Assembly: GCA_029263555.1 (NCBI GenBank)
Contig: JAJUFW010000001.1
Location: 1-32,799, forward strand
Reading direction: 5' to 3'
DNA length: 32,799 nt
Origin: Alphaproteobacteria bacterium
GTDB taxonomy: Bacteria; Pseudomonadota; Alphaproteobacteria; DSM-16000; Inquilinaceae
Part shown: positions 4,567 through 23,090 of the stretch, one piece after another
Layout: each line of letters opens with the position of its first letter
Position numbering within the stretch: position 1 is the first letter of the stretch
Notes under the pieces: model-generated
Seen by the model: the letters and a program-made list of their open reading frames with translations, nothing else
What the model was told of the DNA's origin: nothing
The model's database searches: none
Made by a program: the position numbers and the translations under genes

Positions 4567-4597
4567 GGCAACTCCATTCGGCTTGGGGAGCGACGTT

Positions 4598-4651: not shown

Positions 4652-4927
4652 CCCAAGCTGAAGGGGATGCCAGGCCAGCAAAAGAAGGGAACCGGGTGGT
4701 CAGCGATAAGGCACGCTCGCACCTGCCGGCACGGCCCAGGGAGCTGCTGCGGGATCGCCGGCCGACGAGGGTCGGTACCCTGCCGCGGATCGGCGGAGTC
4801 CGCGCTGTCCGCTGCGGGTCTCCTCGACAGCTTTCCAAAAGCAGCCCCGGCATGTCTCTTGTAGGGCCTCACGGCCCATTCCCCGCGAACGCCGACCCCC
4901 ATGACCTTTGCCCGTGGATCTGGAGAA

Positions 4928-5911: not shown

Positions 5912-6054
5912 GACCGTCGCGGCCGAGGAACAGGCGTTGCCCTTCCCGTTCGGACGGCCCCAATGCGCGCCGCAGTTTCCCGCCCTCGGGCGGCGGCTCT
6001 CGTTCCTCACCCCGCCATCTACCCCCGTCGCCCGCTCGTCGGCATTGGACCAAA

Positions 6055-6107
6055 AAACGAAACGCATTTCAAAACTACTGTACAAAACGCGTTTCACTTT
6101 CTAGCAT
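6055..6107 (+). promoter_or_regulatory. Promoter/operator element, copy 2, in front of the 12-gene operon
   Basis: AAACGAAACGCA (6055-6066), then ACTGTACAAAACGCGTTTC (6077-6095). It reads as TGTACA (6079-6084), a 17 nt spacer, then TAGCAT (6102-6107). The palindrome AAACGCGTTT (6085-6094) lies in the spacer. The element ends about 45 nt upstream of the first binding-protein ATG. Confidence 0.6.
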
Positions 6108-6153
6108 CGTCCCACGAAGATCGATGGAAAAATCGACTAACCAGGGGAGGAAG

Positions 6154-7194
6154 ATGATGATCACCACCGATACGCGTCCCGGTCCAGGCATTCGGGACGT
6201 TTCGCGCCGCCGCTGCATGACGAGCTGCCTTGCACTCGCCGCGGCCCTTTCCCTGGCCGGCACGCCGTCGATCGGCTTGGCGCAGGATGCGGGGACTTTC
6301 CCCGACCGGGCGGTGCGGATCATCGTGCCGCTGGCGCCCGGGGGCAGCGTCGACCTGACGGCGCGCATCGTCGCCGAGGGCATGACGGAACTCCTGGGCC
6401 AGAGCGTCATCATCGAGAATCTTCCCGGCGGCGGCGGATCGGTGGGGGCGGGTGCCGCGGCGCAGGCGGAGCCAGACGGCTACACGATGGTGATGGGCAG
6501 CTCCAGCACCTTCGGCGTCAATCCGAGCCTCATGAAGGATCTGCCCTACGATGCGGTGAATGACTTCGAGCCGGTCTCGTTCGTTTCCTACGCCCCGAAC
6601 GTGCTGGTGGTCACGGCGGACCTGCCGGTCTCGACCGTGGAAGAACTGATCGCGCTCGCGAAGGAGAAGCCGGGCGAACTGACCTTCGCCTCCTCGGGCA
6701 CGGGCGGCTCGCCCCATCTTGCCGGCGAGCTGTTCAAGCGCGAGGCCGGCATCGACATCCTGCACATTCCCTACAAGGGAAGCGGGCAGGCGATGGCGGA
6801 CCTGCTTGCCGGCCGCGTCGACATGTCGTTCGCGACCGCGATCTCGACCCGTGAGCACATCGAATCCGGAGGTCTGAAGGCGCTGGCGGTGACGACGCCC
6901 GAGCGGGTCGACACCCTGCCCGACGTCCCGACCATGGCAGAGGTCGGCCTGCCGGAGGTCCAGATCACGGCCTGGAATGGCCTGCTCGTGCCTGCGGGCA
7001 CGCCGCCGGAAATCGTCGAAAAGCTCAGCGCCGTGGTCCAGGAGGTCATGCGCATGCCCGCGATCGTGGAAAGGCTCAAGAGCGAGGGATCCACGCCCGT
7101 CGGCAGCACCGCGGCCGAGTTCAAGGATCACATCGCCCACGAGATCGCGAAATGGGCCGAGATCATCGAGGCCGCGAACATCTCGATCGAATGA
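6154..7194 (+). CDS. Bug-family (TctC-like) tripartite tricarboxylate transporter substrate-binding protein 1
   Basis: ORF 6124-7194. GGGGAGG precedes ATG 6154/6157. A twin-arginine-like signal (SRRRCMTSCLALAAALSLAGTPSIGLAQD) is followed by the Bug-type mature N-terminus (FPDRAVRIIVPLAPGGSVDLTARIVAEGM). Confidence 0.9.
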   Translation: MMITTDTRPGPGIRDVSRRRCMTSCLALAAALSLAGTPSIGLAQDAGTFPDRAVRIIVPLAPGGSVDLTARIVAEGMTELLGQSVIIENLPGGGGSVGAGAAAQAEPDGYTMVMGSSSTFGVNPSLMKDLPYDAVNDFEPVSFVSYAPNVLVVTADLPVSTVEELIALAKEKPGELTFASSGTGGSPHLAGELFKREAGIDILHIPYKGSGQAMADLLAGRVDMSFATAISTREHIESGGLKALAVTTPERVDTLPDVPTMAEVGLPEVQITAWNGLLVPAGTPPEIVEKLSAVVQEVMRMPAIVERLKSEGSTPVGSTAAEFKDHIAHEIAKWAEIIEAANISIE

Positions 7195-7308
7195 CATGAA
7201 CAAGGTCCGGCAATCCTGAAAAGAACCGGACTCTGCCCAGCGGGCGCGGGATCCGGAGCGATCTCGCGCCCGGCCATAAGCCCATAAACAATCGGGAAGG
7301 ATGAGGAA

Positions 7309-8310
7309 ATGAACATGAAGGCCCTGTTCGGCGCGGGCGCCGGACTGCTTGTCGCGACGGCCGTCGCAACCGTAGGCCTCGTTGGCGCGGCCAGTGCCCA
7401 GGACGCGGCGGCAGACTATCCGAACAAGCCGATCCGCCTGATCGTGCCTTTCGCGCCGGGCGGCGGCACCGATCTGGTCGCGCGCCTTGTCGCCGAGGCG
7501 ATGTCGAAGAACATCGGCCAGCAGATCGTGGTCGAGAACTTCGGCGGCGGCGGCACGGTGATCGGCACCGAACTGGCGGTGAATGCACCGGCCGACGGCT
7601 ACACCATGATGCTCGGATCGACGACTCTGTCGATCAATCCGGGCCTGCGCGACGATCTTCCTTACGACACGCTGGCCGATCTCGAGCCGGTCAGCATGCT
7701 CTCCCGGATCCCCTACATTCTCGTGGCCAACCCGAACGCCGGCTTCAAGACGGTCGAGGAGCTGCTCGCCAAGGCGAAGGCCGAGCCGGGGTCGGTGAAT
7801 GTCGGCTCTCCGGGTGTCGGCAGCGGCGGTCACCTCGCCTCCGAACTGTTCGAATCGCTCGCCGGCGTCGATTTCACCCACATTCCCTACAAGGGCACCG
7901 GCCCGGCGCTGACGGATCTGCTGGGCGGGCAGATCGACATCCTGTTCGGCACGGCGGTATCGGTTGCGTCCCATATCGAGTCGGGCGCGCTGATCCCGAT
8001 CGCCGTATCAGTCGGCGAACGGACGAGTTCGCTGCCCGATGTCCCGACCATCGGCGAGGCCGGGGTCCCCGGATATGAGGCCTCGTCGTGGAACAGCCTG
8101 CTTGTGCCGGCCGGGACGCCGAAGCCGATCATCGATCGGCTCAATGCCGAAGTCCGCAAGGCGCTTGAAAGCGAGAGCGTGAGAGCGGCCCTGCAGCAGG
8201 ACGGCGCCGAGCCCTATCCGACCACTCCCGAACAGTTCAAGGCCTTCCTGACGGCCGAGATCGAGAAGTGGCGGCTGGTGATCGAGGCCGCCGGGATCCA
8301 GCCCGAATAA
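7309..8310 (+). CDS. Bug-family (TctC-like) substrate-binding protein 2
   Basis: A Sec-type signal (MNMKALFGAGAGLLVATAVATVGLVGAASAQD) is followed by YPNKPIRLIVPFAPGGGTDLVARLVAEAM. It is collinear with the upstream paralog throughout. Confidence 0.9.
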   Translation: MNMKALFGAGAGLLVATAVATVGLVGAASAQDAAADYPNKPIRLIVPFAPGGGTDLVARLVAEAMSKNIGQQIVVENFGGGGTVIGTELAVNAPADGYTMMLGSTTLSINPGLRDDLPYDTLADLEPVSMLSRIPYILVANPNAGFKTVEELLAKAKAEPGSVNVGSPGVGSGGHLASELFESLAGVDFTHIPYKGTGPALTDLLGGQIDILFGTAVSVASHIESGALIPIAVSVGERTSSLPDVPTIGEAGVPGYEASSWNSLLVPAGTPKPIIDRLNAEVRKALESESVRAALQQDGAEPYPTTPEQFKAFLTAEIEKWRLVIEAAGIQPE

Positions 8311-8393
8311 TCCGACCGTCGCATCAGCGAACGGCCGGCGCCGGGCAACCGGCGCCGGCCCCTTCCCCCCTTCTCCTACCCCGATGGACTCCC

Positions 8394-9536
8394 ATGAATT
8401 TCGACCTGACCGAAGAGCAGCGCAGCTTCCAGCATGAAGCACGCCGGCTGGCGCGTACCGAACTCGCACCGAAGGCAGCGCGATGGGATACCGAGGCAGA
8501 GGTGCCTTGGGAGAATATCCGCCTCCTGGCCGAGCACGGCTATATGGGCCTGATTCTCCCCGAGGAATACGGCGGGGCGGGGGCCAATCTTCTCGATCTC
8601 GTGATCGTGCTGGAAGAACTGGCCTGGGGCTGCGTGAACACCAGCCTGTTCGTCTTCAGCGCCAATGCGCAGGGAAACCGGATCGTCCAGCTGGGCACCC
8701 CGGAACATAAGGAACGATATGTGCCGCGCATCGCCCGCGGCGAGTTGCATGCCTCGCACGCCATGAGCGAGCCCGGCGCGGGCTCCGACGCCCGACGCCT
8801 GAGAACGAAGGCCGAGCGCGACGGCGACCACTATGTCGTCAACGGCAACAAGTGCTGGATATCGCGCGGCAGCGTCGCCGGCCTGTTCATCACCAACGTC
8901 ACCTTTACCGACGAGAACAAGAAGGGCCTGCTGCTGATCGAGCGCGACACGCCAGGCGTCGAGATCGGCAAGATTGAACCCTTGATGGGCCACCGCGGCA
9001 GCCCGTCGACCGAGCTGCTGTTCCGCGACTGCCGGGTTCCGGTCGAGCAGCGCATGTCGGAAGGCGACCTCAACGCCTCGCTGTTCTCCATGAGCTTCTC
9101 GCGCTGCTGCAATGCCGCGATGGGGATCGGCGCCGCCCAGCGCGCCTTCGACGAGGCAGTCGAATACATCAAGACCCGGGAAGCCTATTCGAAGAAGCTC
9201 TCCGATCTTCAGGGCCTGCGCTGGATGGTCGCCGACATGAAGGTCCGGCTCGACGCGGCGCGGCTGCTCATCTATCGCGCGGCGGCCTCGGCGGCGAGCG
9301 GCTTCCCCTCGGAATCCCAGGCGGCGGTCGCCAAGACCTTCGCCAACGAGGCGGCCCTGCAGGTCATCTCGGACGCCATGCAGCTCATGGGTGCGAACGG
9401 CTATTCGCGCGAATACCCGCTCGAGCGGATCTATCGCGACGTGCGCGGCTTCGCCATCGCCGGCGGCACCACCCAGATCCAGCGCAACCTGATCGCCCGC
9501 GCCGTGCTCGGCAAGCGCGATCACTCCGGGAACTGA
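8394..9536 (+). CDS. Acyl-CoA dehydrogenase family protein, 380 aa
   Basis: ORF 8268-9536, trimmed to ATG 8394 (MNFDLTEEQRSFQHEARRLARTELAP...). ACAD N-terminal, middle (MSEPGAGSD) and C-terminal (GGTTQIQRNLIARAVLG) signatures are present. Confidence 0.9.
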   Translation: MNFDLTEEQRSFQHEARRLARTELAPKAARWDTEAEVPWENIRLLAEHGYMGLILPEEYGGAGANLLDLVIVLEELAWGCVNTSLFVFSANAQGNRIVQLGTPEHKERYVPRIARGELHASHAMSEPGAGSDARRLRTKAERDGDHYVVNGNKCWISRGSVAGLFITNVTFTDENKKGLLLIERDTPGVEIGKIEPLMGHRGSPSTELLFRDCRVPVEQRMSEGDLNASLFSMSFSRCCNAAMGIGAAQRAFDEAVEYIKTREAYSKKLSDLQGLRWMVADMKVRLDAARLLIYRAAASAASGFPSESQAAVAKTFANEAALQVISDAMQLMGANGYSREYPLERIYRDVRGFAIAGGTTQIQRNLIARAVLGKRDHSGN

Positions 9537-9541
9537 CGCAA

Positions 9542-10915
9542 ATGCTGACAGGCAAGCTTGCCGCTTTCGCCACGACCGGCGCCGACGCGCTGCCGGCCCC
9601 CATTCTCGCCGCGGCCCGGGACGCCATAACGGACACGATCGGGGTGACGCTTGCAGGCGTTTCCGAGGAAACGGCGGCGATCGCCCGACGCTGGGCCTGC
9701 GAGGCCGGGGCGCGCCCGGTTTCCAGCATCCTCGGGACGGATGCCGGCTCCTCTCCGTCCGAAGCGGCCTTCGCCAACGGCGTCGCGGCGCATGTCCTCG
9801 ACTTCGACGACAGCCTGCCGAGCATGCGCGGCCATCCGAGCGCGACCCTCGTGCCGGTGGTCCTCGCCGTCGGAGAGGCGGAAGGCGCATCCGGACGGGA
9901 CGTGCTCGCGGCCTACGCCGTGGCGCTGGAGATCGGCGGCAAGCTCGGCCGGGCCATCGGCCATCACCATTATTTGCGGGGCTGGCATTCGACGGCGACG
10001 ATCGGCGCCTTCACCGCAACGGCGGCCGCGGCCCGGTTGTGGCGACTGGACGCCGATGCCGTCGCCACGGCTTGGGGCATCGCGGCCTCGATGGCCTCCG
10101 GCCTCGTCCGGAATTTCGGCACGATGACGAAGTCGTTCCACACCGGCCACGCCGCACGGGTCGGCATCACGGCCGCCTGGATGGCGCGCAACGGCTTTTC
10201 CGCGGACCCGGCCATCTTCGACGGCGACAACGGCTTTCTCCAGACCTACGGCTTCGGCGACGGCGAGGACCTCGCAACCCTCGTCGATGAGCTGGGCTCG
10301 AAGTGGGAGGCCGAACGGCCGGGCATTTTCGTCAAGGGCTGGCCCTGCTGCTACTGCAACCACCGGGCAATCGGCGGCCTGCTGCAGTTGATGGCGGCGA
10401 ACGGTTTCGGCGCCGACGACATCGAGGAGATCGCGGTCGGCTTCGCCCCCGGCTCGGACCGGGCGCTGATCAAGAGCGATCCGCAGACCGGTCTCGAAGC
10501 GAAGTTCAGCATCGAATATGCCGCAGCGGCGACCGTGCTGGACGGAACCCTGACGCTCGACAGCTTCACGGACGAGGCCGTGCATCGTCCGGCGGTGCGT
10601 GCGCTGATGAAGCGCGTCCGCCGCTACCAGGTGCCGGCCGAAGGTGTCTTCTCGGGCGTGGTCGGCTTCACCGACGTGACGGTGAAGGCGGGCGGATCGA
10701 CCTTCGAGATGAGGGTCGACCGTGTTCCGGGATCGCCGGACTGGAAGCTGTCCGACGACGAGCGCCGGGCGAAGTTTCTGGACTGCGCGGGACGCGCCCT
10801 CGGAGAGGACCGGGCCCGGGATCTTTTCGGCCTTGCGCGGGATCTGGATGCGCTGCCCCATGTCGCCGAGCTGATCCGGGCCACGAGGCCGGCGGGCGGC
10901 CGGAGCGAGGCATGA
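9542..10915 (+). CDS. MmgE/PrpD-family protein, paralog 1, 457 aa
   Basis: Motifs LDFDD, RGHPS, GWHSTAT, NFGTMTKSFHTGHAAR and GWPCCYCNHR. Starts 5 nt after the ACAD stop. Confidence 0.9.
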   Translation: MLTGKLAAFATTGADALPAPILAAARDAITDTIGVTLAGVSEETAAIARRWACEAGARPVSSILGTDAGSSPSEAAFANGVAAHVLDFDDSLPSMRGHPSATLVPVVLAVGEAEGASGRDVLAAYAVALEIGGKLGRAIGHHHYLRGWHSTATIGAFTATAAAARLWRLDADAVATAWGIAASMASGLVRNFGTMTKSFHTGHAARVGITAAWMARNGFSADPAIFDGDNGFLQTYGFGDGEDLATLVDELGSKWEAERPGIFVKGWPCCYCNHRAIGGLLQLMAANGFGADDIEEIAVGFAPGSDRALIKSDPQTGLEAKFSIEYAAAATVLDGTLTLDSFTDEAVHRPAVRALMKRVRRYQVPAEGVFSGVVGFTDVTVKAGGSTFEMRVDRVPGSPDWKLSDDERRAKFLDCAGRALGEDRARDLFGLARDLDALPHVAELIRATRPAGGRSEA

Positions 10916-12300
10916 TTACCGGGCGGCTCGCCGAATTCGCGACCGGTTTCGCGGATGACGCCGTGCCCGGTGCGGCGATCGCCCGGGCCGGCGACGCCCT
11001 GGTCGACACGCTGGGCGTCGCGCTCGCCGGCAGCCGGCATCCCGTCTCAGCCCTGGCCCGGACGATCGTCCCGGCGATCGGAGAGCACGAAGCCTCCGTC
11101 TGGGGCGGGGATGGGGCGAAGGTCAGGGCAGGCGACGCCGCGTTCCTGAACGCGGTCCATACCCATGCCCTGGATTTCGACGACTCCTCGCCGGCGCTCC
11201 GGGGACATCCGAGCTGCACCCTGATGCCGGTCGCGGTCGCCATCGGCGAAGCGACCGGCGCCAGCGGCCGCAGCGTGCTTGCCTCCTATGCGATCGGGCT
11301 GGAGGTGGCAAGCCGGATATCGTCGGCGCTCGGACCCGGTCATTATCTCCATGGCTGGCACACCACCGTCACCGCCGGGATTTTCGGCGCGACCGCGATC
11401 GCCGGCCGGCTCCTGGGCCTCGATCGAGAGGCGCTTTGCCGCGCCTTCGGCCTTGCGGCGAGCCGGGCGAGCGGCCTCACGCGCAATTTCGGCACGATGG
11501 CGAAGCCCCTCCATGCCGGAGATGGCGCCCGCGCCGCGATCGAGGCCGTGCATCTCGCCAGATGCGGCTTCACCGCCGATGCCGCCATTCTCGACGGACC
11601 GCAGAACTTCATTGCCGTCTACGGCCGGGGTGGAAGCCCGCTTACCCAGGACTCGCTCGAGAGCCTGGGAGAGCGCTGGACCATCGTCGCCGACGGCATT
11701 TTCGTGAAGCGTTGGCCGTGCTGCTACGCCGTGCATCGCCCGGTCGCCGCGCTGCAGGCGCTGATCGATGAGACGGGCCTCAAGAAGGACGAGATCGTCT
11801 CGGTCGAGGTCGGATTCCTGCCGGGCGTCGAGCATCCGCTGAAGCACCGGGCTCCGACGACCGGCTCGGAAGCGCGGTTCAGCATCGAATATGCGATCGC
11901 CGCCACCCTTCTCGACGGCGATCTTTCGCTGGCGTCCTTTGCCGACGACCAGGTGCGCAGGCCGGAAGCCCAGGCGCTGATGGCGCGGGTCCGCCGCTTC
12001 TCGATACCGCATGAGGGCATGTTCAACGGGCTCACCGGCTTCACCGAGCTGGTGGTCGAGACCACGGCCGGGACGATCAGGCGACGCTACGAGCGCACGC
12101 CGGGTTCGCCCGAATGGCCGCTCTCCCCGGACGAACAGGCCGCCAAGTTCCTGGGCTGCGCCGCTCTCGCCCTCGACGACCGGGAGGCGCACGACCTGCT
12201 CGGCCGCGCCCGCTCCGTCGCCGGACTGGCCGACATCCGGGCGCTGTACGATCCGGTCACGACGCCCGCCTCGTCGCCTGAACCCCTTGCTTGGAACTGA
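10912..12300 (+). CDS. MmgE/PrpD-family protein, paralog 2, 462 aa
   Basis: ORF 10303-12300, trimmed to ATG 10912 (MITGRLAEFATGF...), which overlaps the upstream stop as ATGA. Same motif set: LDFDD, RGHPS, GWHTTVT, NFGTMAKPLHAG, RWPCCYAVHR. Confidence 0.9.
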   Translation: MITGRLAEFATGFADDAVPGAAIARAGDALVDTLGVALAGSRHPVSALARTIVPAIGEHEASVWGGDGAKVRAGDAAFLNAVHTHALDFDDSSPALRGHPSCTLMPVAVAIGEATGASGRSVLASYAIGLEVASRISSALGPGHYLHGWHTTVTAGIFGATAIAGRLLGLDREALCRAFGLAASRASGLTRNFGTMAKPLHAGDGARAAIEAVHLARCGFTADAAILDGPQNFIAVYGRGGSPLTQDSLESLGERWTIVADGIFVKRWPCCYAVHRPVAALQALIDETGLKKDEIVSVEVGFLPGVEHPLKHRAPTTGSEARFSIEYAIAATLLDGDLSLASFADDQVRRPEAQALMARVRRFSIPHEGMFNGLTGFTELVVETTAGTIRRRYERTPGSPEWPLSPDEQAAKFLGCAALALDDREAHDLLGRARSVAGLADIRALYDPVTTPASSPEPLAWN

Positions 12301-12310
12301 GGAAAGCATC

Positions 12311-13531
12311 ATGTCGCGTGCATTAGCCGGGCTGCGAGTACTGGATCTGTCCGGTCCGCTTGGCAATTACTGCGGAAAACTCTTCGGCGACCTCGGTGCG
12401 GACGTCATTCTGATCGAGCCGCCGGAAGGAACGGCACTCCGCCGCGAACCCCCCTTCGTCGACGACAAGGTCGACATCGAGGCAAGCTTGCCCTTCGCCT
12501 ACGCGAATACCAGCAAGCGGGGGATCGTTCTCGATCTTGAGCAGGAGAGGGACCGGGAGGTCTTCCGGCGGCTTGCCGATACCGCCGATCTCGTGATCGA
12601 GACGTTCCGGCCGGGGACGATGAGCGCCTGGGGACTCGATTACGCCACGCTTTCGGCCAGGAATCCCCGCCTGGTCATGACGAGCATCACGCCCTTCGGC
12701 CAGACCGGCCCCTACGCGCAATACGTTGCCGAGGACATCATCGGCATGGCGATGGGAGGGCTGCTCTATCTCGGCGGCTACCCGGATACCCCTCCCATCA
12801 CCAGCTACGGCAATCAGGCCTATGCCGCGGCCAATCTCTACGGCGCGACCGCCTCTATGATGGCGCTGCTTGCCGCCGAGCAGACCGGAACCGGCGAGCA
12901 TGTCGACGTCTCCATGCAGGAGAGCGTGGTGATGGCGCTGGAAACGGCCGCCCAGTTCTATGACCTGGAGGGCACGGTGAAGAAGCGCTGGGGCGGCAAG
13001 CAGCGCCACGCCGGCACCGGCGTCTTTCCCTGCAAGGACGGCTACATCTACTTCATGGCCGGCGGCGTCGGCGGAAACCGCTTCTGGCGGCTGAGCTGCG
13101 ACTGGTTCGAGGAGGAGGGCGTTCCCGGCGCCGAACAGTTCCGCGAGGAGCGTTGGTTCACGCACGAGTTCCTGGGCACGGACGAGGCCAAGAAGATCTT
13201 CGCCGACATCTTCATCCCCTTCGCCCGCCGCTACACCATGGAGGAGCTGTACCGGAAGGGGCAGGAGAAGCACGTGCCGATCGCGCCCGTCAGCACGCCG
13301 GCCGATCTCCTGACCAATCCGCAGCTCCGCCATCGGGGCTTCTTCACCGAAATGACCCACCCGCTGCGGGCGGAGCCGTTCCTGGCGCCCGGCGCCCCCT
13401 ATCAGCTCAGCACGACGCCGTGGGCGATCGCCCGACCGGCGCCGAAGCTCGGCGAACATACGGCCGAGGTACTGGCGGAACTTGACCTTCATGCCGGCGG
13501 CCGGCCCGCCGCCGGAGCAGGAGTACGATGA
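12311..13531 (+). CDS. Family III (CaiB/BaiF) CoA-transferase 1, 406 aa
   Basis: ORF 12011-13531, trimmed to ATG 12311 with GAGGAA upstream. N-terminus LRVLDLSGPLGNYCGKLFGDLGADVILIEPPEG. The active-site region ITPFGQTGPYAQYVAEDIIGMAMGG carries Asp142 (GAC 12734-12736). Confidence 0.9.
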   Translation: MSRALAGLRVLDLSGPLGNYCGKLFGDLGADVILIEPPEGTALRREPPFVDDKVDIEASLPFAYANTSKRGIVLDLEQERDREVFRRLADTADLVIETFRPGTMSAWGLDYATLSARNPRLVMTSITPFGQTGPYAQYVAEDIIGMAMGGLLYLGGYPDTPPITSYGNQAYAAANLYGATASMMALLAAEQTGTGEHVDVSMQESVVMALETAAQFYDLEGTVKKRWGGKQRHAGTGVFPCKDGYIYFMAGGVGGNRFWRLSCDWFEEEGVPGAEQFREERWFTHEFLGTDEAKKIFADIFIPFARRYTMEELYRKGQEKHVPIAPVSTPADLLTNPQLRHRGFFTEMTHPLRAEPFLAPGAPYQLSTTPWAIARPAPKLGEHTAEVLAELDLHAGGRPAAGAGVR

Positions 13532-14754
13532 TGGCTGGACGCAGACCGCTCGAGGGGATTCGCGTCACCGATTTCACCTGGATCGGTGCCGGTTCCTTCG
13601 CAACGAAGATGCTGGCCGATGCCGGCGCCGACGTGATCAAGATCGAGAGCAGCGAGAGGCTCGACAGCCTTCGCGTCGCCCCGCCCTTCAAGGACAAGAT
13701 CAAGGGCGTCAACCGCAGCGGCTACTTCTCCGACCGCAACACCAGCAAGCGCAGCTTCGCGCTGAACCTGAAGAACCCGCGGTCCAGGGACATCGTGCTG
13801 AAGCTCGTGGAGAAGAGCGATGTCGTCGCCAACAACTTCACGCCGGGCGTGATGGAGCGGCTTGGCCTCGACTACGCCAGCATCCGCGAGGTCAAGCCGG
13901 ACATCGTGTATCTTTCGATGTCGATGCAGGGATCGACTGGCCCGCACAGCCGATATCTCGGCTATGGGCTCACGATCGGCGCGCTGTCCGGATTGCACCA
14001 TCTGTCGGGTTTGCCGGACCGTCTTCCGGCCGGCACCGGCACCAACTATCCGGACCACATGCCGAACCCGTGCCATGCGGTCTTTGCGGTGCTTGCCGCC
14101 CTGCGCCATCGGCGCCGGACCGGCGAGGGCCAGTACATCGACATCGCCCAGACCGAACCGACGATCGCCCTCCTCGCGCCGGCAGTGCTGGACTATACGG
14201 TGAACGGCCGGGTCGCGACCCGCAGCGGCAACGACCGGCCCGGCGTCGCGCCGCATGGCGTCTATCCGGTGGCGGGAAGCGACCGCTGGATCGCGATCGC
14301 GGTCACCGACGACCGGCAATGGGCCGCTCTCGTCAACGTGCTCGGGCAGCCGGACTGGGCCCGATCCGACCGTTGGAGCACGGCTGCCGACCGGTATCGG
14401 GACCGGAGCGATCTCGACCGGCTGCTTGGCCAGGAGACGGCCAGGCGCGACGGCGAGGAGCTGATGTCCGCCCTGCAGAGCGCGGGCGTTCCGGCCGGGC
14501 TGGTGCGCGACGCGGCGGACCTGATCGACCGTGATCCGCAACTGGCGCATCGCGGTCACTGGGTGAAGCTCAATCACGCCGAGATGGGCGAGACGATCTA
14601 CAACGCGCCCCCCTACCGCTTCTCCAAGTCCCGGGTGGAGCTGCGCACGCCGGCGCCCTTGCTGGGCGAGCACACCCGCGAAGTGCTGCAGGAGCTGCTG
14701 GGGATCGGCGCGGAGGAGGGCGAGGCGTTGATCCGCGAGGGGGTGCTGGTCTGA
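13528..14754 (+). CDS. Family III (CaiB/BaiF) CoA-transferase-like protein 2, 408 aa, Gly at the catalytic Asp position
   Basis: ATGA overlap with the upstream gene at 13528-13531. N-terminus IRVTDFTWIGAGSFATKMLADAGADVIKIE. The region equivalent to the active site reads GSTGPHSRYLGYGLTIGALSG (Gly147, GGG 13966-13968). Confidence 0.85.
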   Translation: MMAGRRPLEGIRVTDFTWIGAGSFATKMLADAGADVIKIESSERLDSLRVAPPFKDKIKGVNRSGYFSDRNTSKRSFALNLKNPRSRDIVLKLVEKSDVVANNFTPGVMERLGLDYASIREVKPDIVYLSMSMQGSTGPHSRYLGYGLTIGALSGLHHLSGLPDRLPAGTGTNYPDHMPNPCHAVFAVLAALRHRRRTGEGQYIDIAQTEPTIALLAPAVLDYTVNGRVATRSGNDRPGVAPHGVYPVAGSDRWIAIAVTDDRQWAALVNVLGQPDWARSDRWSTAADRYRDRSDLDRLLGQETARRDGEELMSALQSAGVPAGLVRDAADLIDRDPQLAHRGHWVKLNHAEMGETIYNAPPYRFSKSRVELRTPAPLLGEHTREVLQELLGIGAEEGEALIREGVLV

Positions 14755-16172
14755 TGCATGGACGGCCTCATCCGGACGCCTCCGACGGCGTGACGGCGAA
14801 ACTTGCCGCCTTCGTGGTCGGTCTGCCGGCGGAGGCTATCCCGGCCGCCGCCTTCGAGAAGGCGGCGAAGTGTCTGGTCGATACCGCGGCCTGCATGCTG
14901 GCCGGGGCGGCAAGCGAGGAAGCCGAGCCCCTGAAGCGGTTTCTGGCCGCGCGGGCGCCCGGCACGGCGCCGATCGTCGGCACGTCCCTTTCCGCGGATC
15001 CGGTGGTGGCCGCGCTGGTGAACGGCACCTTCGGCCATGCACTCGATTTCGACGACGTGCTGTCGATCATGCCCGCCCATCCGAGCACGGTGATCCTTCC
15101 CGCCCTGCTTGCGACGGCGCCGGCCGGCACGCCGGGAGGCGCGCTGATGGAGGCCTATGTGATCGGCCTGGAGGTCGGCGCGAAGATCGGCATTGCCATC
15201 GGCAATGGCCATTACCGCCGTGGCTGGCACGCGACCGGCACGCTGGCCATCTTCTCTGCTGTGGCGGCCCTGGGCCGGCTCCTTGGCGTCGACGAGCGCG
15301 AGATGCGCACCGCCTTCGGCATCGTCGCGTCGATGAGCAGCGGTCTGCAGTGCAACTTCGGCACGATGACGAAGCCGTTCCACGCCGGCTGGGCGTCGCA
15401 CAATGCCGTGACCGCGATCACGCTTGCCAAAGCCGGCATGACCGCCGCCACGGCGGCCTTCGAGGCGCCGTCCGGCTTCTTCTCGACCTACGGGACGGAA
15501 CGCTCGGACGTCGCGCGGATCACGGAAGGGCTGGGCGCCCCCTTCGCCCTTCTCGAGCCGGGCCTGGCGCTGAAGAAGTACCCCTGCTGCTACGCGCTTC
15601 ATCGGGCGATCGACGGGATGCTGGAGATACGCCGCCGGCGCCCCGTGTCCCCCGAGACGGTGAAGAGCGTGGTCTGCCGTGTCGCGCCCGGCGCGCTGCG
15701 GCCGCTGATCCACGACGATCCCAGGACCGGGCTCGAAGCGAAGTTCAGCATGGACTACACGCTCGCCGCCGGCATCCTCGACGGCCGCTTCGATCTCACC
15801 GCCTTCAGCGACGAGGGGCCGAACCGGCCGGGGATTCGCGCCCTGCTGCCGCGCGTTTCCAAGATCGAGGATCCCCGCTGCTTCGGCGACGACCCCGATC
15901 CCGCCATCCGCAGCGCCGGTACGGTCGGCTTCGTGGAGGTGACCGTGGAGTTCCATGACGGGACCAGCGAGACGGTGCGCATCGATCGTCCGTCCGGCTC
16001 GCCGCAGAAGGAGCTGTCCTGGGACGATCTCTCGGAAAAATTCAGCGACTGCGCCCGGGAGGCCGGCCTGTCCCAGGATGCCGCGCGCGACGCCTTCCGG
16101 ACCTGGCGCAATCTCGCCGCCGCGGCGGACGTCCAATCAGCGATAAGGGTTCTCACGAGGAGTGAAGCATGA
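14754..16172 (+). CDS. MmgE/PrpD-family protein, paralog 3, 472 aa
   Basis: TGATG junction at 14752-14756. Motifs LDFDD, AHPS, GWHATGT, NFGTMTKPFHAG and KYPCCYALHR. Confidence 0.9.
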   Translation: MHGRPHPDASDGVTAKLAAFVVGLPAEAIPAAAFEKAAKCLVDTAACMLAGAASEEAEPLKRFLAARAPGTAPIVGTSLSADPVVAALVNGTFGHALDFDDVLSIMPAHPSTVILPALLATAPAGTPGGALMEAYVIGLEVGAKIGIAIGNGHYRRGWHATGTLAIFSAVAALGRLLGVDEREMRTAFGIVASMSSGLQCNFGTMTKPFHAGWASHNAVTAITLAKAGMTAATAAFEAPSGFFSTYGTERSDVARITEGLGAPFALLEPGLALKKYPCCYALHRAIDGMLEIRRRRPVSPETVKSVVCRVAPGALRPLIHDDPRTGLEAKFSMDYTLAAGILDGRFDLTAFSDEGPNRPGIRALLPRVSKIEDPRCFGDDPDPAIRSAGTVGFVEVTVEFHDGTSETVRIDRPSGSPQKELSWDDLSEKFSDCAREAGLSQDAARDAFRTWRNLAAAADVQSAIRVLTRSEA

Positions 16173-16948
16173 GCGTCGCCATCACCAAGAAGGACCATGT
16201 CCTCACGATCACGCTGGATCGGCCCGACCAGCTGAACGCGATCGATCCGGAGACGAGGGCGGGGCTAGTCGAGGCGTGGCGGTCGTTCCGGGAGGACGAC
16301 GACGCGTGGGTCGCCATTCTGACCGGGCGCGGCGAGAAGGCGTTCTGCGTCGGCTCCGACCTAAAGAAGACGATGCCGCCGGACGGCAGCTTCGCGGCGA
16401 CGCATTTCAGCGCAGCCGGCGGCGACGAGCTGTGGCGGCCGCTGCAGAACCTTTGGAAGCCGGTGATCGCGGCGATCAACGGCTATGCCTTCGGGGGCGG
16501 CCTGGAACTGGCGCTCGCCTGCGATCTCAGGATCGCCTCGACCAATGCGGTCTTCGCGCAGTCTGAGGTGCGGGTCGGCTCGATGGTCGGCGCCGGGGGC
16601 GCCATCCGGCTGATGCGCGTGGCGCCGCCGGCGGTGGCGATGAAGATGCTGCTCACCGGCGACCGGGTCAGCGCGGAAGAGGCCTATCGCATCGGCCTCG
16701 TCAGCGATCTGTGCCAGCCGCACGAGCTGATGGCCAAGGCCGAGGAGATCGCCGAGCAGATCTGCCGGAACGCGCCGCTGGCGGTGCGTGCGACGAAGAT
16801 GGCCGCCGTTCTCGGCCAGTCGATGCCGGTCGACCAGGGGCTCGAGGTCGAGCGGCTGCTCTGGGGCCTGCTGCGCAATACCGAGGACCGCATCGAGGGA
16901 CGCCGGGCCTTCGCCGAGAAGCGTGCGCCGAACTGGCGGGGCGCGTGA
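16169..16948 (+). CDS. Enoyl-CoA hydratase/isomerase (crotonase) family protein, 259 aa
   Basis: ATGA overlap at 16169-16172. Crotonase motifs ILTGRGEKAFCVGSDL and INGYAFGGGLELALACDLRIAS. Confidence 0.9.
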   Translation: MSVAITKKDHVLTITLDRPDQLNAIDPETRAGLVEAWRSFREDDDAWVAILTGRGEKAFCVGSDLKKTMPPDGSFAATHFSAAGGDELWRPLQNLWKPVIAAINGYAFGGGLELALACDLRIASTNAVFAQSEVRVGSMVGAGGAIRLMRVAPPAVAMKMLLTGDRVSAEEAYRIGLVSDLCQPHELMAKAEEIAEQICRNAPLAVRATKMAAVLGQSMPVDQGLEVERLLWGLLRNTEDRIEGRRAFAEKRAPNWRGA

Positions 16949-18105
16949 TGGCGGGCCATCTGCTGGACGAGCAGATCCGGGTCCCCTGCGTCATCATGCG
17001 GGGAGGCACGAGCAAGGGCGTCTTCTTCGACGAAGCCGACCTCCCGGCCGATCCCGAAGATCGCGCCGCCTTGATCCTCGCGGCGATGGGAAGCCCGGAT
17101 CCGCGCCAGATCGACGGCCTCGGCGGCGCCGATCCGCTGACGAGCAAGGTCTGCATCATCGGGCCCGGCGAAGCCTTCGGAGCGCACTGCACCTATACCT
17201 TCGCCCAGGTCGGCATCGACGAGCCCTATGTCGCGCTTTCCGGCAACTGCGGCAATCTGTCGGCCGCGGTCGGCGTCTACGCGATCGAGCGGGGGCTGGC
17301 CCCGGCGCAGGAGCCGGAAACGGAGGTGCGGATATACAACACCAATGCGCGCCAGATCCTGATCGCGCGGGTCCCGGTCCGGAACGGCCGGCCGGCGGTG
17401 GCAGGCGACTACGCCATCGCCGGGGTTCCGGGCACGGCGGCCGAGATCCGGATGGACTACTCGCAGACCGCCGGAGCCACGACCGGCCGGGTGCTGCCGA
17501 CCGGACAGCCGCGCGACAGCCTCTACATCCCGGAATTCGGCCGGTCGATCGAGATTTCGATCGTCGATATCGCCAAGGCGACCTGCTTCTTTCATGCCGC
17601 CGAGGCGGGCATCGCCGGGACGGAGGGACCGGAGGCGTTCACCGAGGAAATCCTCAACCGCTTCTGGGCGATCCGGAACGCGGCCGCCCGGCATATCGGC
17701 CTGGCGCCGGGTTCGCGGCTGCCGACACCCGTCGCCGTCGCCCGGCCGGCCGGCTATGTCAACTACATGACCAAGCAGCCCGTCCACGCCGAGGACGTCA
17801 GCTTCGTCGCGCGCCGGGTGATCGGGCCGCCGCCCCGCCTGCACAAGGCCTTCGCCTCGACGGGCGCGGTGTGCACGGCTTCGGCCGCGCGGATTCCGGG
17901 CACCATCGTCAACGAGGTCTGCCGGACGGACACGGACGACATCGTGCGGATCGGCCACCCGAGCGGGATTTTCCCGGTAAAGATCACCTTCGACGCCGAA
18001 GGTCGGTTGTCGGAGGCTTCCTATTCCCGCACGGCCCGTCGCATTCTCCAGGGCGAGGTCCTGATTCCCCGTCACCGCCTCGCGACCGGTTCGAAACGCC
18101 CCTGA
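16948..18105 (+). CDS. PrpF-family protein (2-methylaconitate isomerase / 4-oxalomesaconate tautomerase family), 385 aa
   Basis: ORF 16711-18105, trimmed to ATG 16948 (TGATG junction). N-terminus VPCVIMRGGTSKGVFFDEADLP, then GSPDPRQIDGLGGADPLTSKVCII. Confidence 0.85.
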   Translation: MAGHLLDEQIRVPCVIMRGGTSKGVFFDEADLPADPEDRAALILAAMGSPDPRQIDGLGGADPLTSKVCIIGPGEAFGAHCTYTFAQVGIDEPYVALSGNCGNLSAAVGVYAIERGLAPAQEPETEVRIYNTNARQILIARVPVRNGRPAVAGDYAIAGVPGTAAEIRMDYSQTAGATTGRVLPTGQPRDSLYIPEFGRSIEISIVDIAKATCFFHAAEAGIAGTEGPEAFTEEILNRFWAIRNAAARHIGLAPGSRLPTPVAVARPAGYVNYMTKQPVHAEDVSFVARRVIGPPPRLHKAFASTGAVCTASAARIPGTIVNEVCRTDTDDIVRIGHPSGIFPVKITFDAEGRLSEASYSRTARRILQGEVLIPRHRLATGSKRP

Positions 18106-18125
18106 AGAACAGCAGAAAGAAGGCC

Positions 18126-18572
18126 ATGACCATAAAGATACCTAGATCCAGGGATTTTTGGGCCGGCGTGACATTCATGCTTGTCGGGGCCCTTGCGATC
18201 TATTTCGGCTCGGATCTCGCGATGGGCGACGTGCGCCGCATGGGGCCACGCTACTTCCCGACCCTTGCGGCCGGCGGCCTGTTGGTGATCGGCGCGATCG
18301 TGGCCTTCCGGGGACTGGGCACCGAAACCGACCCGGGCAAAGCGGGCGCAGTGACGCCGGTGCTGATCCTGCTCTCCGTGCTGCTGTTCGGGCTGCTGCT
18401 CCGGCCGTTCGGCTTCGTCATCGCAACCGTGACGATGATCGCCGTGGCGAGCCTTGCCGGTCCGCGGATGCGTCTGGTCGAGCTCGTCGCCCTGGCGGCG
18501 GCGCTCACGGCGTTCTCCTGGCTCATCTTCGTATGGGCGCTTGGTCTTCCCCTGCAAACCTGGCCGGCGTGA
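18126..18572 (+). CDS. tctB: Tripartite tricarboxylate transporter small membrane subunit TctB, 148 aa
   Basis: This is the tail of ORF 16788-18572, from ATG 18126 (MTIKIPRSRDFWAGVTFMLVGALAIYFG...). It has four hydrophobic segments and sits immediately upstream of tctA. Confidence 0.8.
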   Translation: MTIKIPRSRDFWAGVTFMLVGALAIYFGSDLAMGDVRRMGPRYFPTLAAGGLLVIGAIVAFRGLGTETDPGKAGAVTPVLILLSVLLFGLLLRPFGFVIATVTMIAVASLAGPRMRLVELVALAAALTAFSWLIFVWALGLPLQTWPA

Positions 18573-18573
18573 G

Positions 18574-20082
18574 ATGGAACTTCTGGACAATCTGGCTCTC
18601 GGCCTCAGCGTCGCGCTGTCGGCCGAACATATGCTCGAGTGCCTGCTGGGCACGCTGCTCGGCACCCTGATCGGTGTGCTGCCGGGGCTCGGCCCGACCG
18701 CGACCATCGCGATCCTGTTGCCGATCACCTTCGGCCTGCCGCCTGCGGCTTCGCTGATCATGCTGGCCGGCATCTATTACGGCGCGCAGTATGGCGGGTC
18801 GACGACGTCGATCCTTGTGAACTTGCCCGGCGAGGCCTCGTCGGTCGTCACCTGTCTCGACGGCTACCAGATGGCGAGGCAGGGCAGGGCGGGGCCGGCG
18901 CTGACCGTCGCGGCGCTCGGATCGCTGTTCGCGGGCTGCATCGGCACGCTGTGCCTCGCCCTGTTCGGGCCGCCGCTCGCCAAGGCCGCGCTTTCCTTCG
19001 GACCTGCGGAGTATTTTTCCCTGATGGTCCTCGGGCTGGTGGCAGCGGTCGTGCTTTCGAGCGGGTCGCTCATCAAGGCGATCGGGATGATCTTTATGGG
19101 CCTCATGCTCGGTTGCGTCGGCACGGACGTGAACACCGGCGTGGCGCGCTACACCTTCGGATTTCACGAGCTGGGCGACGGCATCGACTTCATCGTCGTG
19201 GCGATGGGTGTCTTCGCCCTGGCCGAAATCATGCGCAACCTGGAGAAGCCGCAGGATCGCAGCGTGCTGAGCCGGCCGATCGGCCAGCTGCGGCCGAGCC
19301 GGGAAGAGATGCGGCGTTCGGTCGGACCGATCCTCCGCGGCACCACGCTCGGATCCCTGGTCGGCGCGCTCCCGGGGGCGGGCGCTGTGATCTCGTCCTT
19401 CATGTCCTATGCCCTGGAAAAGCGCATCTCGAAGCATCCGGAGCGTTTCGGCAATGGCGCGATCGAGGGTGTGGCCGGCCCGGAATCTGCCAACAACGCC
19501 TGTGCCCAGACCGCGTTCATCCCGCTCCTGACGCTGGGCATTCCGGGCGGCGCCGTCACGGCGCTGATGCTGGGTGCGCTGATGATCCACGGGATCGCGC
19601 CCGGCCCGCAGGTGATGACGCGCAATCCGGACGTGTTCTGGGGGCTCATTGCCAGCATGTGGGTCGGCAACGTGTTCCTGGTCATCCTGAACCTGCCGAT
19701 GATCGGCATCTGGGTCCGGCTGCTCCACCTGCCCTACCGGGTCCTTTTCCCGGCAATCCTCATGTTCTGCTGCATCGGAGTCTTCAGCCTCAACAACAGC
19801 ACCTTCGATGTGATGCTGATGGTCATCTTCGGTGCCTTCGGATACCTGCTGCTGAAGTTCGGGTGCGAGCCGGCGCCGATGCTGCTCGGGTTCATTCTCG
19901 GGCCGATGATGGAAGAGAACCTGCGGCGGGCCCTGCTGCTGTCCCGCGGTGACGCATCCGTGTTCGTCACGCGGCCGATCAGCCTCGTCATGCTGTCGGT
20001 CGCCGTCCTTCTGGTGCTGACCATCGTCCTGCCGGCAATGAAGAAGAGGCGCAACGAGATCCTCGTCGAGGCGGAGGACTGA
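18574..20082 (+). CDS. tctA: Tripartite tricarboxylate transporter large permease TctA, 502 aa
   Basis: ORF 18454-20082, trimmed to ATG 18574, 1 nt after the tctB stop. Starts MELLDNLALGLSVALSAEHMLECLLGTLLGTLIGVLPGLGPTATIAILLP. It is polytopic throughout. Confidence 0.9.
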   Translation: MELLDNLALGLSVALSAEHMLECLLGTLLGTLIGVLPGLGPTATIAILLPITFGLPPAASLIMLAGIYYGAQYGGSTTSILVNLPGEASSVVTCLDGYQMARQGRAGPALTVAALGSLFAGCIGTLCLALFGPPLAKAALSFGPAEYFSLMVLGLVAAVVLSSGSLIKAIGMIFMGLMLGCVGTDVNTGVARYTFGFHELGDGIDFIVVAMGVFALAEIMRNLEKPQDRSVLSRPIGQLRPSREEMRRSVGPILRGTTLGSLVGALPGAGAVISSFMSYALEKRISKHPERFGNGAIEGVAGPESANNACAQTAFIPLLTLGIPGGAVTALMLGALMIHGIAPGPQVMTRNPDVFWGLIASMWVGNVFLVILNLPMIGIWVRLLHLPYRVLFPAILMFCCIGVFSLNNSTFDVMLMVIFGAFGYLLLKFGCEPAPMLLGFILGPMMEENLRRALLLSRGDASVFVTRPISLVMLSVAVLLVLTIVLPAMKKRRNEILVEAED

Positions 20083-20091
20083 CGCCTCCGC
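20071..20091 (+). terminator. Weak GC hairpin spanning the tctA stop codon
   Basis: GCGGAGG (20071-20077), a 7 nt loop, then CCTCCGC (20085-20091). There is no U-tract, so it may act as an attenuator or stabiliser rather than a full terminator. Confidence 0.25.
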
Positions 20092-20161
20092 TGGGCGAGA
20101 AGACGCGGGGGAAAGAAGCAAGCCCGATCGCCGGGCACAACCATCTAGGGGGAGTTTTCGC

Positions 20162-23060: not shown

Positions 23061-23090
23061 GGTTACGCACTCCCTAACATTTGTCGTTGT

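Follow-up and report, generated by a model that had tools for sequence, protein, structure and literature searches.

Which acid does a bacterium take up and break down with a set of carboxylate genes for which no described pathway was found? The question is raised by an operon in a 32,799-nucleotide stretch of DNA (positions 1 to 32,799 of contig JAJUFW010000001.1, assembly GCA_029263555.1, from an alphaproteobacterium of the Inquilinaceae), referred to below as the window. Twelve + strand genes at 6154-20082 encode the two parts of a tripartite tricarboxylate transporter (TTT) and, between these, a series of enzymes. With moderate confidence we read them as the greater part of a conserved catabolic locus under IclR control (approximately 2113-20773), which would degrade a substituted C4-dicarboxylate via CoA esters. 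For the epimerase-like proteins, for the isomerase and for the transferase alike, the nearest characterised relatives use substituted C4-dicarboxylates, and the substrate would therefore probably be a 2-substituted succinate, a disubstituted maleate or an alkylidene-succinate (itaconate type), perhaps bearing a third carboxylate. The operon is made up as follows.

6154-7194, + strand: bug1, TctC-family periplasmic binding protein 1 (Pfam TctC, E 7e-82), with the ribosome-binding site GGGGAGGAAG before the ATG at 6154
7309-8310, + strand: bug2, TctC-family periplasmic binding protein 2 (Pfam TctC, E 9e-67)
8394-9536, + strand: flavoprotein of the acyl-CoA dehydrogenase (ACAD) fold without both canonical catalytic Glu residues; the four Pfam ACAD domains are all present
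9542-10915, + strand: PrpD1, MmgE/PrpD protein, iminodisuccinate-epimerase-like (383 bits, 43% identity to 2HP3)
10912-12300, + strand: PrpD2, MmgE/PrpD protein, iminodisuccinate-epimerase-like (371 bits, 43% identity to 2HP3)
12311-13531, + strand: CoAT1, family III CoA-transferase subunit without the catalytic Asp (330 bits to 9fn0_A; next match 169)
13528-14754, + strand: CoAT2, catalytic subunit of a family III CoA-transferase (393 bits to 9fn0_B; next match 214)
14754-16172, + strand: PrpD3, more distant iminodisuccinate-epimerase-like paralog (267 bits, 36% identity to 2HP0)
16169-16948, + strand: ECH, crotonase-family enoyl-CoA hydratase (Pfam ECH_1, E 1e-64)
16948-18105, + strand: PrpF-family isomerase (323 bits to 3G7K, 3-methylitaconate delta-isomerase; ~200 for PrpF and LigU)
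18126-18572, + strand: TctB, small membrane subunit (Pfam TctB, E 1e-18)
18574-20082, + strand: TctA, large membrane subunit (Pfam TctA, E 3e-168)

All twelve open reading frames (ORFs) were present where a first-pass annotation, made from the letters alone, had placed them, and its family names agreed with Pfam throughout (E 1e-18 to 1e-168). Its ATGA overlaps (10912, 13528, 16169) and TGATG junctions (14754, 16948) were recovered exactly; from 5' to 3' along the operon the gaps between genes measure 114, 83, 5, -4, 10, -4, -1, -4, -1, 20 and 1 nt. The reading frame of tctB was concealed within a longer spurious ORF of the ORF list. The G+C content of the window is ~67%, and that of third codon positions (GC3) is 0.81-0.91 in the called genes, the twelve of the operon lying at 0.82-0.91; the long antisense ORFs display the mirror pattern (GC3 ~0.65, first-position GC1 ~0.82) and had no Pfam match where tested, which marks them as high-GC artefacts.

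The TTT set is complete (TctA, TctB and two TctC proteins) and split across the operon, the two TctC genes coming first and TctB-TctA last, as the first-pass annotation had also described. The order TctC-TctC-ACAD-PrpD(-PrpD)-CoAT-CoAT-PrpD-ECH-PrpF-TctB-TctA was found, at 58-83% protein identity, in two other loci: one in Microvirga antarctica (L001), which has one PrpD fewer, the missing gene being PrpD2, and one on a JGI metagenome contig (L002), of which there is also a Logan copy (L003). The conservation of the gene neighbourhood, which had been put forward as a check on the operon, was thereby confirmed. The twelve genes are a tightly packed, conserved operon and not a chance arrangement.

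The closest solved relative of the three MmgE/PrpD proteins, at 36-43% identity, is the iminodisuccinate epimerase of Agrobacterium tumefaciens BY6 (2HP0/2HP3). That enzyme is known to be partnered by a C-N lyase and not by CoA enzymes, and this locus contains no lyase of the aspartase/fumarase type. The 2-methylcitrate dehydratases in the PDB matched PrpD1 and PrpD3 with 31-54 bits (31 for PrpD1) and did not match PrpD2 at E<=1e-5; against NCBIfam PrpD, PrpD1 scored 54.9 (cutoff 950), PrpD3 scored 50.2 (cutoff 575) and PrpD2 gave no match. In alignments, H85, D88, H99, Y145, H150, K198 and K266 are retained in PrpD1, PrpD2 and PrpD3. In MmgE/PrpD epimerases His99 and Tyr145 serve as the pair of bases (Gonner et al. 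2025, PMC12290011), and H85, D88, H150, K198 and K266 are their carboxylate ligands (PMC12290011). Members of the epimerase type act on free methylsuccinate or iminodisuccinate; the itaconate cluster encodes one that isomerises (S)- and (R)-methylsuccinate as the free acid and not as the CoA ester, and a C4 1,4-dicarboxylate backbone is common to all known MmgE/PrpD substrates (PMC12290011). Judging from these relatives and residues, PrpD1-3 would be free-acid epimerases, and the dehydration of the PrpD/PrpF type that had been suggested for them is unlikely at 267-383 bits to iminodisuccinate epimerase with His99 and Tyr145 kept. PrpD3-like proteins (49-62% identity) were also seen without the other enzymes in further loci (L005-L008, L010, L012-L016), mostly beside an orphan TctC gene, so the PrpD3 clade is not confined to this pathway.

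The gene first labelled PrpF probably does not encode PrpF proper. Its product is nearest to the 3-methylitaconate delta-isomerase of nicotinate fermentation (Mii, 3G7K), with 323 bits compared to ~200, and it stays below cutoff in NCBIfam (TIGR02334, 233.5 against 440.55; OMA_tautomer, 307 against 440). The Lys of the GGTSKG motif is found in 22 of 23 aligned sequences (one has Arg) and the Cys of NCGN in all 23; these two residues, kept in the window protein, we take to be the catalytic pair, as in Mii and PrpF. Mii serves an anaerobic, CoA-independent route, in which it is followed by an aconitase-type hydratase and dimethylmalate lyase, neither of which is present in this locus. The PrpD-ECH-PrpF block is kept in L001, in L002 and in a locus of an Acetobacteraceae metagenome-assembled genome (L004/L009).

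A tricarboxylate pathway (citrate-, aconitate-, methylcitrate- or tricarballylate-like), in which PrpD dehydrates, PrpF isomerises aconitate-type intermediates, and ACAD and crotonase take beta-oxidation-like steps, is the alternative that survives best, and we regard it as unlikely. The TTT transporter and the Pfam family names fit it, and aconitate isomerases do occur within the PrpF family (PMC11495376). By our own reasoning, a route from tricarballylate via aconityl-CoA and isocitryl-CoA to glyoxylate and succinyl-CoA would suit the transferase, hydratase and aldolase, together with a glyoxylate-reductase-like D-isomer-specific 2-hydroxyacid dehydrogenase (2HADH) encoded upstream of bug1. 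However, the match to 2-methylcitrate dehydratase is weak and the NCBIfam PrpD scores lie far below cutoff, and PrpD1-3 retain the Tyr of the epimerases although neither tricarballylate nor aconitate offers a stereocentre to epimerise. Moreover, the known assimilation of trans-aconitate involves an isomerase and an importer only (PMC11495376), the catalytic Glu is missing from the ACAD-like protein, and a literature search gave no link of tricarballylate with a CoA-transferase, ACAD and ECH. Curated family scores ruled out a locus of the methylcitrate cycle, of tricarballylate (Tcu) or of carnitine (Cai) breakdown. The first-pass suggestion of a tri- or dicarboxylate substrate is thus narrowed: the relatives favour a C4-dicarboxylate, and a tricarboxylate would be possible and is not indicated.

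The first-pass annotation found the operon and overlooked what surrounds it, namely a divergent operon with IclR, aldolase and DUF35 genes, the 2HADH gene and a gene for an HD-domain protein. These features, with the elements between them, are as follows.

1094-2116, - strand: hydrolase of the metallo-beta-lactamase (MBL) fold, last gene of the divergent operon (Pfam Lactamase_B, E 7e-29)
2113-2577, - strand: DUF35 partner protein, Zn-ribbon plus OB-fold (Pfam zf-ChsH2, OB_ChsH2_C; Cys4 ribbon CLAC...CTCC)
2574-3722, - strand: thiolase-fold retro-aldolase of the Ltp2 type (PDB: 4u4e, 252 bits; Ltp2 6ok1, 238 bits; thiolase BbsB, 115 bits)
3817-4566, - strand: IclR-family regulator, first gene of the divergent operon (Pfam HTH_IclR, IclR_C)
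4598-4652, unstranded: operator-like element, copy A (AAACGAAACGC...ACTGTACAAAACGCGTTTC), 55 nt, adjoining the IclR start
4901-5911, + strand: 2HADH (Pfam 2-Hacid_dh_C, E 2e-58)
6055-6108, unstranded: operator-like element, copy B, immediately 5' of bug1
20162-20773, + strand: HD-domain protein, 79 nt 3' of tctA with no significant structure in between

The aldolase, DUF35 and MBL genes are chained by 4-nt overlaps, one between the DUF35 start and the aldolase stop, indicating translational coupling, and one between the MBL gene and the DUF35 stop. The MBL-fold gene is tentatively counted as a member of the divergent operon; in Microvirga antarctica an AbrB-family gene occupies its position, and MBL is not conserved there. 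At 100-921 on the - strand, next to the MBL-fold gene, is another regulator of the IclR family, with 73% identity by BLASTP to that at 3817-4566. In L001 and L002 the genes for IclR, the thiolase-fold protein, DUF35, the dehydrogenase and the HD-domain protein are all found around the operon, the last two 3' of tctA, and the IclR gene diverges from the transporter and enzyme operon there as well as in L004/L009. For 2HADH the top NCBIfam families were PGDH and glyoxylate reductase, all below cutoff; its orthologs (62-68% identity) were in-cluster in L001, L002, L009, L019 and L028.

Copies A and B of the operator-like element, which contains an internal palindrome, AAACGCGTTTC, lie 1457 nt apart on either side of the 2HADH gene and are linked by the direct repeat families D1 and D2 at 88-94% identity. 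L001 and L002 each have one copy, between IclR and TctC. The 55-nt element may comprise the IclR operator and the promoter region, and the presence of two copies here against one in the relatives suggests that the dehydrogenase gene moved to its present place together with a promoter copy. The promoter first proposed at 6079-6107 has no match to the sigma-70 consensus, although it falls inside this conserved, duplicated element (6055-6108); a promoter scan returned a single sigma-70-like site, on the wrong strand.

The HD-domain gene is probably the thirteenth member of the operon, and its orthologs (69-72% identity) also stand 3' of the transporter genes in L001 and L002. Its AlphaFold2 model (mean predicted local distance difference test, pLDDT, 92.7) retrieved generic HD folds only from the PDB with Foldseek (YhaM at a template-modelling score, TM, of 0.68, the rest weak). 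The family is small, with 153 matches at E<=1e-10, and the few named ones are Alphaproteobacteria. Homologs at 54-56% identity were seen in Agaricicola (L173 10001-10603) and Aquabacter (L174 10001-10603), without the enzymes of this locus nearby; TRAP transporter genes lie directly beside the homolog in the former and up to ~3 kb away in the latter. HD homologs beside TRAP genes, together with HD after the TTT genes here, suggest a link of this protein to carboxylate uptake.

Only two gaps within the operon are large, and each holds a strong hairpin.

7241-7272, + strand: 13-bp GC hairpin in the bug1-bug2 gap; the stretch 7190-7308 folds at -43.5 kcal/mol (z -2.25), and no T-run follows
8333-8360, + strand: perfect 12-bp GC hairpin in the bug2-ACAD gap (-37.9 kcal/mol, z -3.72, 0 of 200 shuffles as good); no T-run follows

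GC hairpins of this kind are common 3' of binding-protein genes, and a terminator scan gave terminator-like sites at chance level only. The two hairpins may set the ratio of binding protein to enzyme rather than end the transcript. They are nonetheless one argument for the next alternative, that several independent catabolic units are neighbours without making up one pathway, as Bug and CoA-transferase genes commonly are in genomes of this kind. Also in its favour, unrelated contexts contain PrpD3-like genes too (L005-L008, L010; 50-62% identity), and HD homologs adjoin other transporters. We consider it improbable, as nine junctions span at most 20 nt, with overlaps at five of these, an operator is shared 5' of both units, and the whole set forms a block in L001 and L002. 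Even in L009, L019 and L028 the parts are reshuffled but stay together. These last loci (L004/L009; L019 from Paucibacter; L028 from Bordetella sp. BOR01) have other transporters, an ABC transporter replacing TTT in one of them; they are the closest to the window in enzyme content, yet none has an ACAD.

The divergent operon contributes the enzyme that would cut the carbon chain. The aldolase scored about twice as high with Ltp2 as with the thiolase BbsB, whose nucleophilic Cys aligns with Ala in the window protein and with a Cys in none of 91 orthologs. In place of the thiolase motif HDxF it has YDNF, which includes the position of Ltp2 Tyr294; the motif reads LYDNF in 89 and FYDNF in two of the 91 orthologs, so that the Tyr is invariant. 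The second Ltp2 tyrosine (Tyr344, in SESY) is present in the window protein and in 88 of the 91, and Ltp2 His296 is replaced by Asn. In Ltp2 the catalytic base is Tyr294, part of YDHF, and Tyr344 serves as the acid (PMC12329534). A true thiolase of the SCP2 type was rejected, given the missing nucleophilic Cys and the replacement of HDxF by YDNF. DUF35 genes confirmed by Pfam also lie 3' of the aldolase gene in L001 and in several further related loci.

The aldolase served to trace the module further. At 67-91% identity it was found from Hyphomicrobiales to Bordetella, Achromobacter, Rhodobacterales and the actinomycete Acrocarpospora, placing the module in Alpha- and Betaproteobacteria and one actinomycete; Primorskyibacter flagellatus, Neoaquamicrobium, Rhodoligotrophos and plasmid 3 of Variovorax sp. 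SRS16 also carry it, the last being the single aldolase match in the plasmid collection, with a generic annotation. Of the 48 aldolase-bearing loci of at least 9 kb, ~40 have the core of two CoA-transferases, crotonase, aldolase and DUF35. Family by family, family III CoA-transferase genes were counted in at least 44, ECH and the aldolase in at least 41 each, TctC in 26, a probable DUF35 family in 25 (assigned by its representative, which has the same Zn-ribbon motif, and not by Pfam), ACAD and IclR in 24 each, PrpD in 22 and PrpF in 14; since some genes are lost to the ORF filter, each of these counts is a minimum. The order may differ, as in Achromobacter deleyi (CoAT-CoAT-PrpD-ECH-aldolase-DUF35-ACAD-TctC-PrpF-FeADH-TctC). 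An ECH homolog lies immediately 5' of the aldolase gene in 37 of the 40 loci of at least 9 kb with a listed gene order. The accessory redox enzyme varies by locus (2HADH, an iron-containing alcohol dehydrogenase, Ldh_2, a short-chain dehydrogenase/reductase (SDR) or an aldehyde dehydrogenase), a pattern that fits a carbonyl product.

Two variants of the module deserve separate mention. In Acrocarpospora pleiomorpha (L088 1-15000) an ECH-aldolase-DUF35-CoAT-CoAT set stands beside an itaconate-type set of ACAD, HpcH lyase, CoA-transferase and MaoC-like hydratase, and genes for the electron-transferring flavoprotein (ETF), a FAD_binding_2 flavoprotein and a PrpD-like protein are near it as well; this context hints that the module belongs to branched dicarboxylate metabolism. 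Elsewhere, a gene of the ornithine cyclodeaminase/mu-crystallin family lies beside the module in two unrelated variants (L004/L009 81-1061 and L028 4250-5488), and genes of the Ldh_2 family appear in L089 and again in L171. Imine reductases occur in both families, and a nitrogen-containing, opine-like substrate is possible in the variants with cyclodeaminase or Ldh_2 genes.

Activation to a CoA ester would fall to the transferase. CoAT1 pairs with chain A of benzylsuccinate CoA-transferase and CoAT2 with chain B, each scoring about double what the next structure reaches, and the two CoAT genes overlap by 4 nt. The catalytic Asp is found in CoAT2 (Asp176, in NYPDH) and in 55 of 55 CoAT2 orthologs; the corresponding position in CoAT1 is Ala, and none of 52 orthologs has Asp there. 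With Asp in CoAT2 only and the one-to-one match of chains, the two are better read as a single heteromeric enzyme of the BbsEF type with one type of catalytic subunit than as the two CoA-transferases listed at first, correct as the family assignment of both was (Pfam CoA_transf_3). The idea of carboxylate activation by CoA transfer is supported, as a prediction, by the likeness to BbsEF (330 and 393 bits). The ECH has both catalytic Glu residues (GGGLE, SEVRVG), here as in 76 orthologs.

The likeness to BbsEF raises the question of whether the locus is a bbs system. The bbs pathway of anaerobic toluene degraders (BbsEF, BbsG, BbsH, BbsCD, BbsAB) shares with it a two-subunit family III transferase, a crotonase-family hydratase, a thiolase-fold protein with a DUF35 Zn-ribbon partner and, if our model holds, the logic of regenerating the CoA donor: in the bbs pathway the succinyl-CoA released last is the donor for the first step (PMC10818641). 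A full bbs-type thiolytic beta-oxidation would take the substrate by ACAD, hydratase and 2HADH to a 3-oxoacyl-CoA, which the thiolase-like protein and DUF35 would cleave with CoA in the manner of BbsAB. The pair does recall BbsAB (115 bits to BbsB, and a weak match of DUF35 to the NCBIfam model of BbsA), and by our own reasoning 2HADH could oxidise a hydroxyl alpha to the free carboxylate. This reading is nevertheless very improbable, because the nucleophilic Cys is missing here and in all 91 orthologs, the HDxF His has given way to the catalytic Tyr of Ltp2, no SDR of the BbsCD type is encoded in the locus, and the ACAD-like protein has no catalytic base. This locus further differs in adding free-acid epimerase-like proteins, an isomerase and a TTT importer; no benzylsuccinate synthase gene was seen among the Pfam-annotated ORFs of the window. 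The named carriers Microvirga, Achromobacter, Bordetella and Primorskyibacter are aerobes, unlike the anaerobes with bbs genes.

The aldolase points instead to the steroid-degrading ChsH1-ChsH2-Ltp2 and Shy-Sal systems, with which the locus shares the Tyr of YDxF, the second catalytic Tyr, the obligatory DUF35 partner and, in the route proposed below, an aldolase that acts straight after the hydratase, with no 3-hydroxyacyl-CoA dehydrogenase (PMC12329534). It differs from them in having a crotonase and not a MaoC hydratase, a free-standing DUF35 protein and the Asn in place of His296, and no steroid genes lie near it. Carboxylate transporters and C4-dicarboxylate enzymes surround the aldolase gene, which suggests that the substrate is a small acid.

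The weakest point in the enzyme set is the ACAD-like protein. The catalytic Glu376 of medium-chain acyl-CoA dehydrogenase (MCAD), in IYEGT, lies in a motif that reads IAGGT here, and Ser is found at the position of MCAD Thr255, which holds the base of long-chain and isovaleryl-CoA dehydrogenases (LCAD/IVD). Dehydrogenation is doubtful with both Glu residues missing, and the earlier reading of ACAD plus crotonase as beta-oxidation-like steps is weakened by the Gly and Ser at these positions. The protein may be either an atypical dehydrogenase that admits saturated substrates or a non-redox enzyme. The IAGGT motif is the same in the orthologs (L001 4919-6061, L002 3634-4776, L107 4033-5169). The ACADs of the widespread module, by comparison, are ~30% identical to that of the window and keep the catalytic Glu (IVEG), and ACAD-like matches in the plasmid collection were at most 43% identical and uninformative. 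In L092, L093 and L096 a second base-less ACAD lineage (MIAGGS) adjoins genes for a CoA-transferase and a PrpD-like protein.

IAGGT is also the motif of 3-sulfinopropionyl-CoA desulfinase (5af7), and membership of that family was considered and rejected: the score was 336 against an NCBIfam cutoff of 600, and desulfinase Arg84, presumably essential for desulfination, is Leu here. An organosulfur variant, with a desulfinase-type enzyme in a locus degrading a sulfinate- or thioether-containing succinate analogue, is the least probable of the alternatives: the shared motif, the desulfinase as top NCBIfam match and the fact that 3-sulfinopropionate is an isostere of succinate are outweighed by that score, the lost Arg84, the lack of a thiol dioxygenase or sulfite exporter among the Pfam-annotated ORFs of the window and its relatives, and the ordinary Glu-containing ACAD of most related loci.

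The third comparison is with the itaconate-methylsuccinate cluster of pseudomonads and Cupriavidus (Ict, Ich, Ccl, Mcd, Msi; PMC12290011), which likewise has a free-acid MmgE/PrpD epimerase near an ACAD and a family III transferase, and in which a hydrated CoA ester yields a carbonyl compound and an acyl-CoA. Here the MaoC-type Ich and HpcH-type Ccl are replaced by a crotonase and the Ltp2-type aldolase, and neither a MaoC-type hydratase nor an HpcH-type lyase was found by Pfam within 1094-20773; the MaoC gene at 30928-31485 is part of a separate downstream cluster. Further differences are the heteromeric transferase, the three epimerase-like paralogs, the PrpF-family isomerase and the base-less ACAD-like protein. 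The locus resembles a hybrid of the bbs, itaconate/methylsuccinate and steroid hydratase-aldolase systems and a member of none. An NCBIfam equivalog scan of all locus enzymes reached no cutoff; the gene set is not described in the literature found on PrpD/PrpF/CoA-transferase, BbsEF, DUF35 aldolase or tricarballylate-CoA, and that on the itaconate cluster and C. necator does not cover it. Within these searches, the first-pass view that the gene set corresponds to no described pathway stands.

For the degradation of a substituted C4-dicarboxylate we propose the following route. The gene order, its conservation, the nearest relatives, the catalytic-residue patterns and the shared operator are observed; from them we infer the kind of substrate, which CoA donor is used, in what order the enzymes act and what the cleavage yields. 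The acid would enter through the dedicated TTT transporter with its two binding proteins. PrpD1-3 and the PrpF-family protein would interconvert stereo- and double-bond isomers of the free acid, giving the form that the transferase accepts. The BbsEF-type transferase, with CoAT2 as its catalytic part and probably succinyl-CoA as donor, would then form the thioester, and the crotonase would hydrate the enoyl-CoA. The Ltp2-type retro-aldolase with DUF35 would cleave the resulting 3-hydroxyacyl-CoA to a carbonyl compound and an acyl-CoA, and 2HADH would act on the carbonyl or 2-oxoacid product, or else on a 2-hydroxy precursor. The acyl-CoA product would probably be recycled as CoA donor, in which case no ATP would be spent; priming of the next round by the acyl-CoA would explain why the transferase-hydratase-aldolase core is self-sufficient, with or without ACAD. 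Examples of chemistry that would fit on paper are the cleavage of an alkylidene-succinyl-CoA to an aldehyde and succinyl-CoA, of 2,3-dimethylmaleyl-CoA to pyruvate and propionyl-CoA, and of aconityl-CoA to glyoxylate and succinyl-CoA; they are given as illustrations. More tentatively, and as a bolder claim of which we are less than persuaded, the locus may be the fullest version of a widespread, undescribed module, a cycle that primes itself, spends no ATP and removes a carbonyl fragment from substituted succinates or maleates.

Several observations weigh against the proposed route. No enzyme reached any NCBIfam equivalog cutoff, and the aldolase gene sits outside the twelve-gene operon. With a base-less ACAD, the step from a saturated acid to the enoyl-CoA is not secured in this locus. 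The part given to succinyl-CoA, as donor and as product, is drawn by analogy from BbsEF only. The active-site residues of PrpD1-3 are largely common to MmgE/PrpD epimerases, decarboxylases and dehydratases, so the epimerase activity is a prediction, and PrpD-like genes also occur in the ACAD-free loci L009, L019 and L028, so their role may exceed that of an epimerase for saturated acids. Finally, the model assigns no role to the HD and MBL proteins.

Beyond the locus, an Rrf2-family regulator (20893-21345, - strand) and a GNAT acetyltransferase (21389-21952, - strand) converge on the end of the operon, with no link to it in the relatives. They are followed by a gene set at 22050-31485 that resembles a cluster for the prenyl-FMN-dependent (de)carboxylation of some aromatic or unsaturated acid. 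It consists of a TAXI-type TRAP transporter (22050-25031, - strand), an AMP-binding CoA ligase (25177-27051, + strand), a UbiD-family decarboxylase (27212-28768, - strand), a DUF2390 gene, a Flavoprotein-family gene by Pfam, of UbiX-like size (30323-30931, - strand), and the MaoC hydratase (30928-31485, - strand).

Orphan clusters for the CoA-dependent catabolism of acids are common in genomes of this kind, which limits the surprise; the present locus is set apart as widespread and internally coherent, with two enzymes in unexpected settings. If the proposed reading is correct, it would represent a new CoA-dependent route for substituted C4-dicarboxylates (relatives of itaconate, alkylsuccinates, disubstituted maleates), the environmental turnover of which is poorly known. 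On the bolder claim, the substrate could be an abundant and overlooked natural acid, such as the alkyl- or carboxyalkyl-itaconates of fungi, hematinic acid, which is an example of a disubstituted maleate derived from tetrapyrroles, or a succinate-bearing chelator. On that same claim the locus would give Ltp2-type aldolases their first role outside steroid catabolism and BbsEF-type transferases their first outside anaerobic hydrocarbon catabolism, extending both to small-acid metabolism in bacteria known as aerobic, and the base-less ACAD-fold enzyme might carry out new, non-redox chemistry. The enzymes could also be run in reverse, forming C-C bonds onto succinyl-CoA. For the MmgE/PrpD family, at least one member of which is found in ~19% of species and which is mostly uncharacterised (PMC12290011), three unassigned proteins would gain testable functions. 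Since the aldolase is so well conserved across phyla and can serve as a marker of the module in metagenomes, one solved substrate would annotate many genomes.

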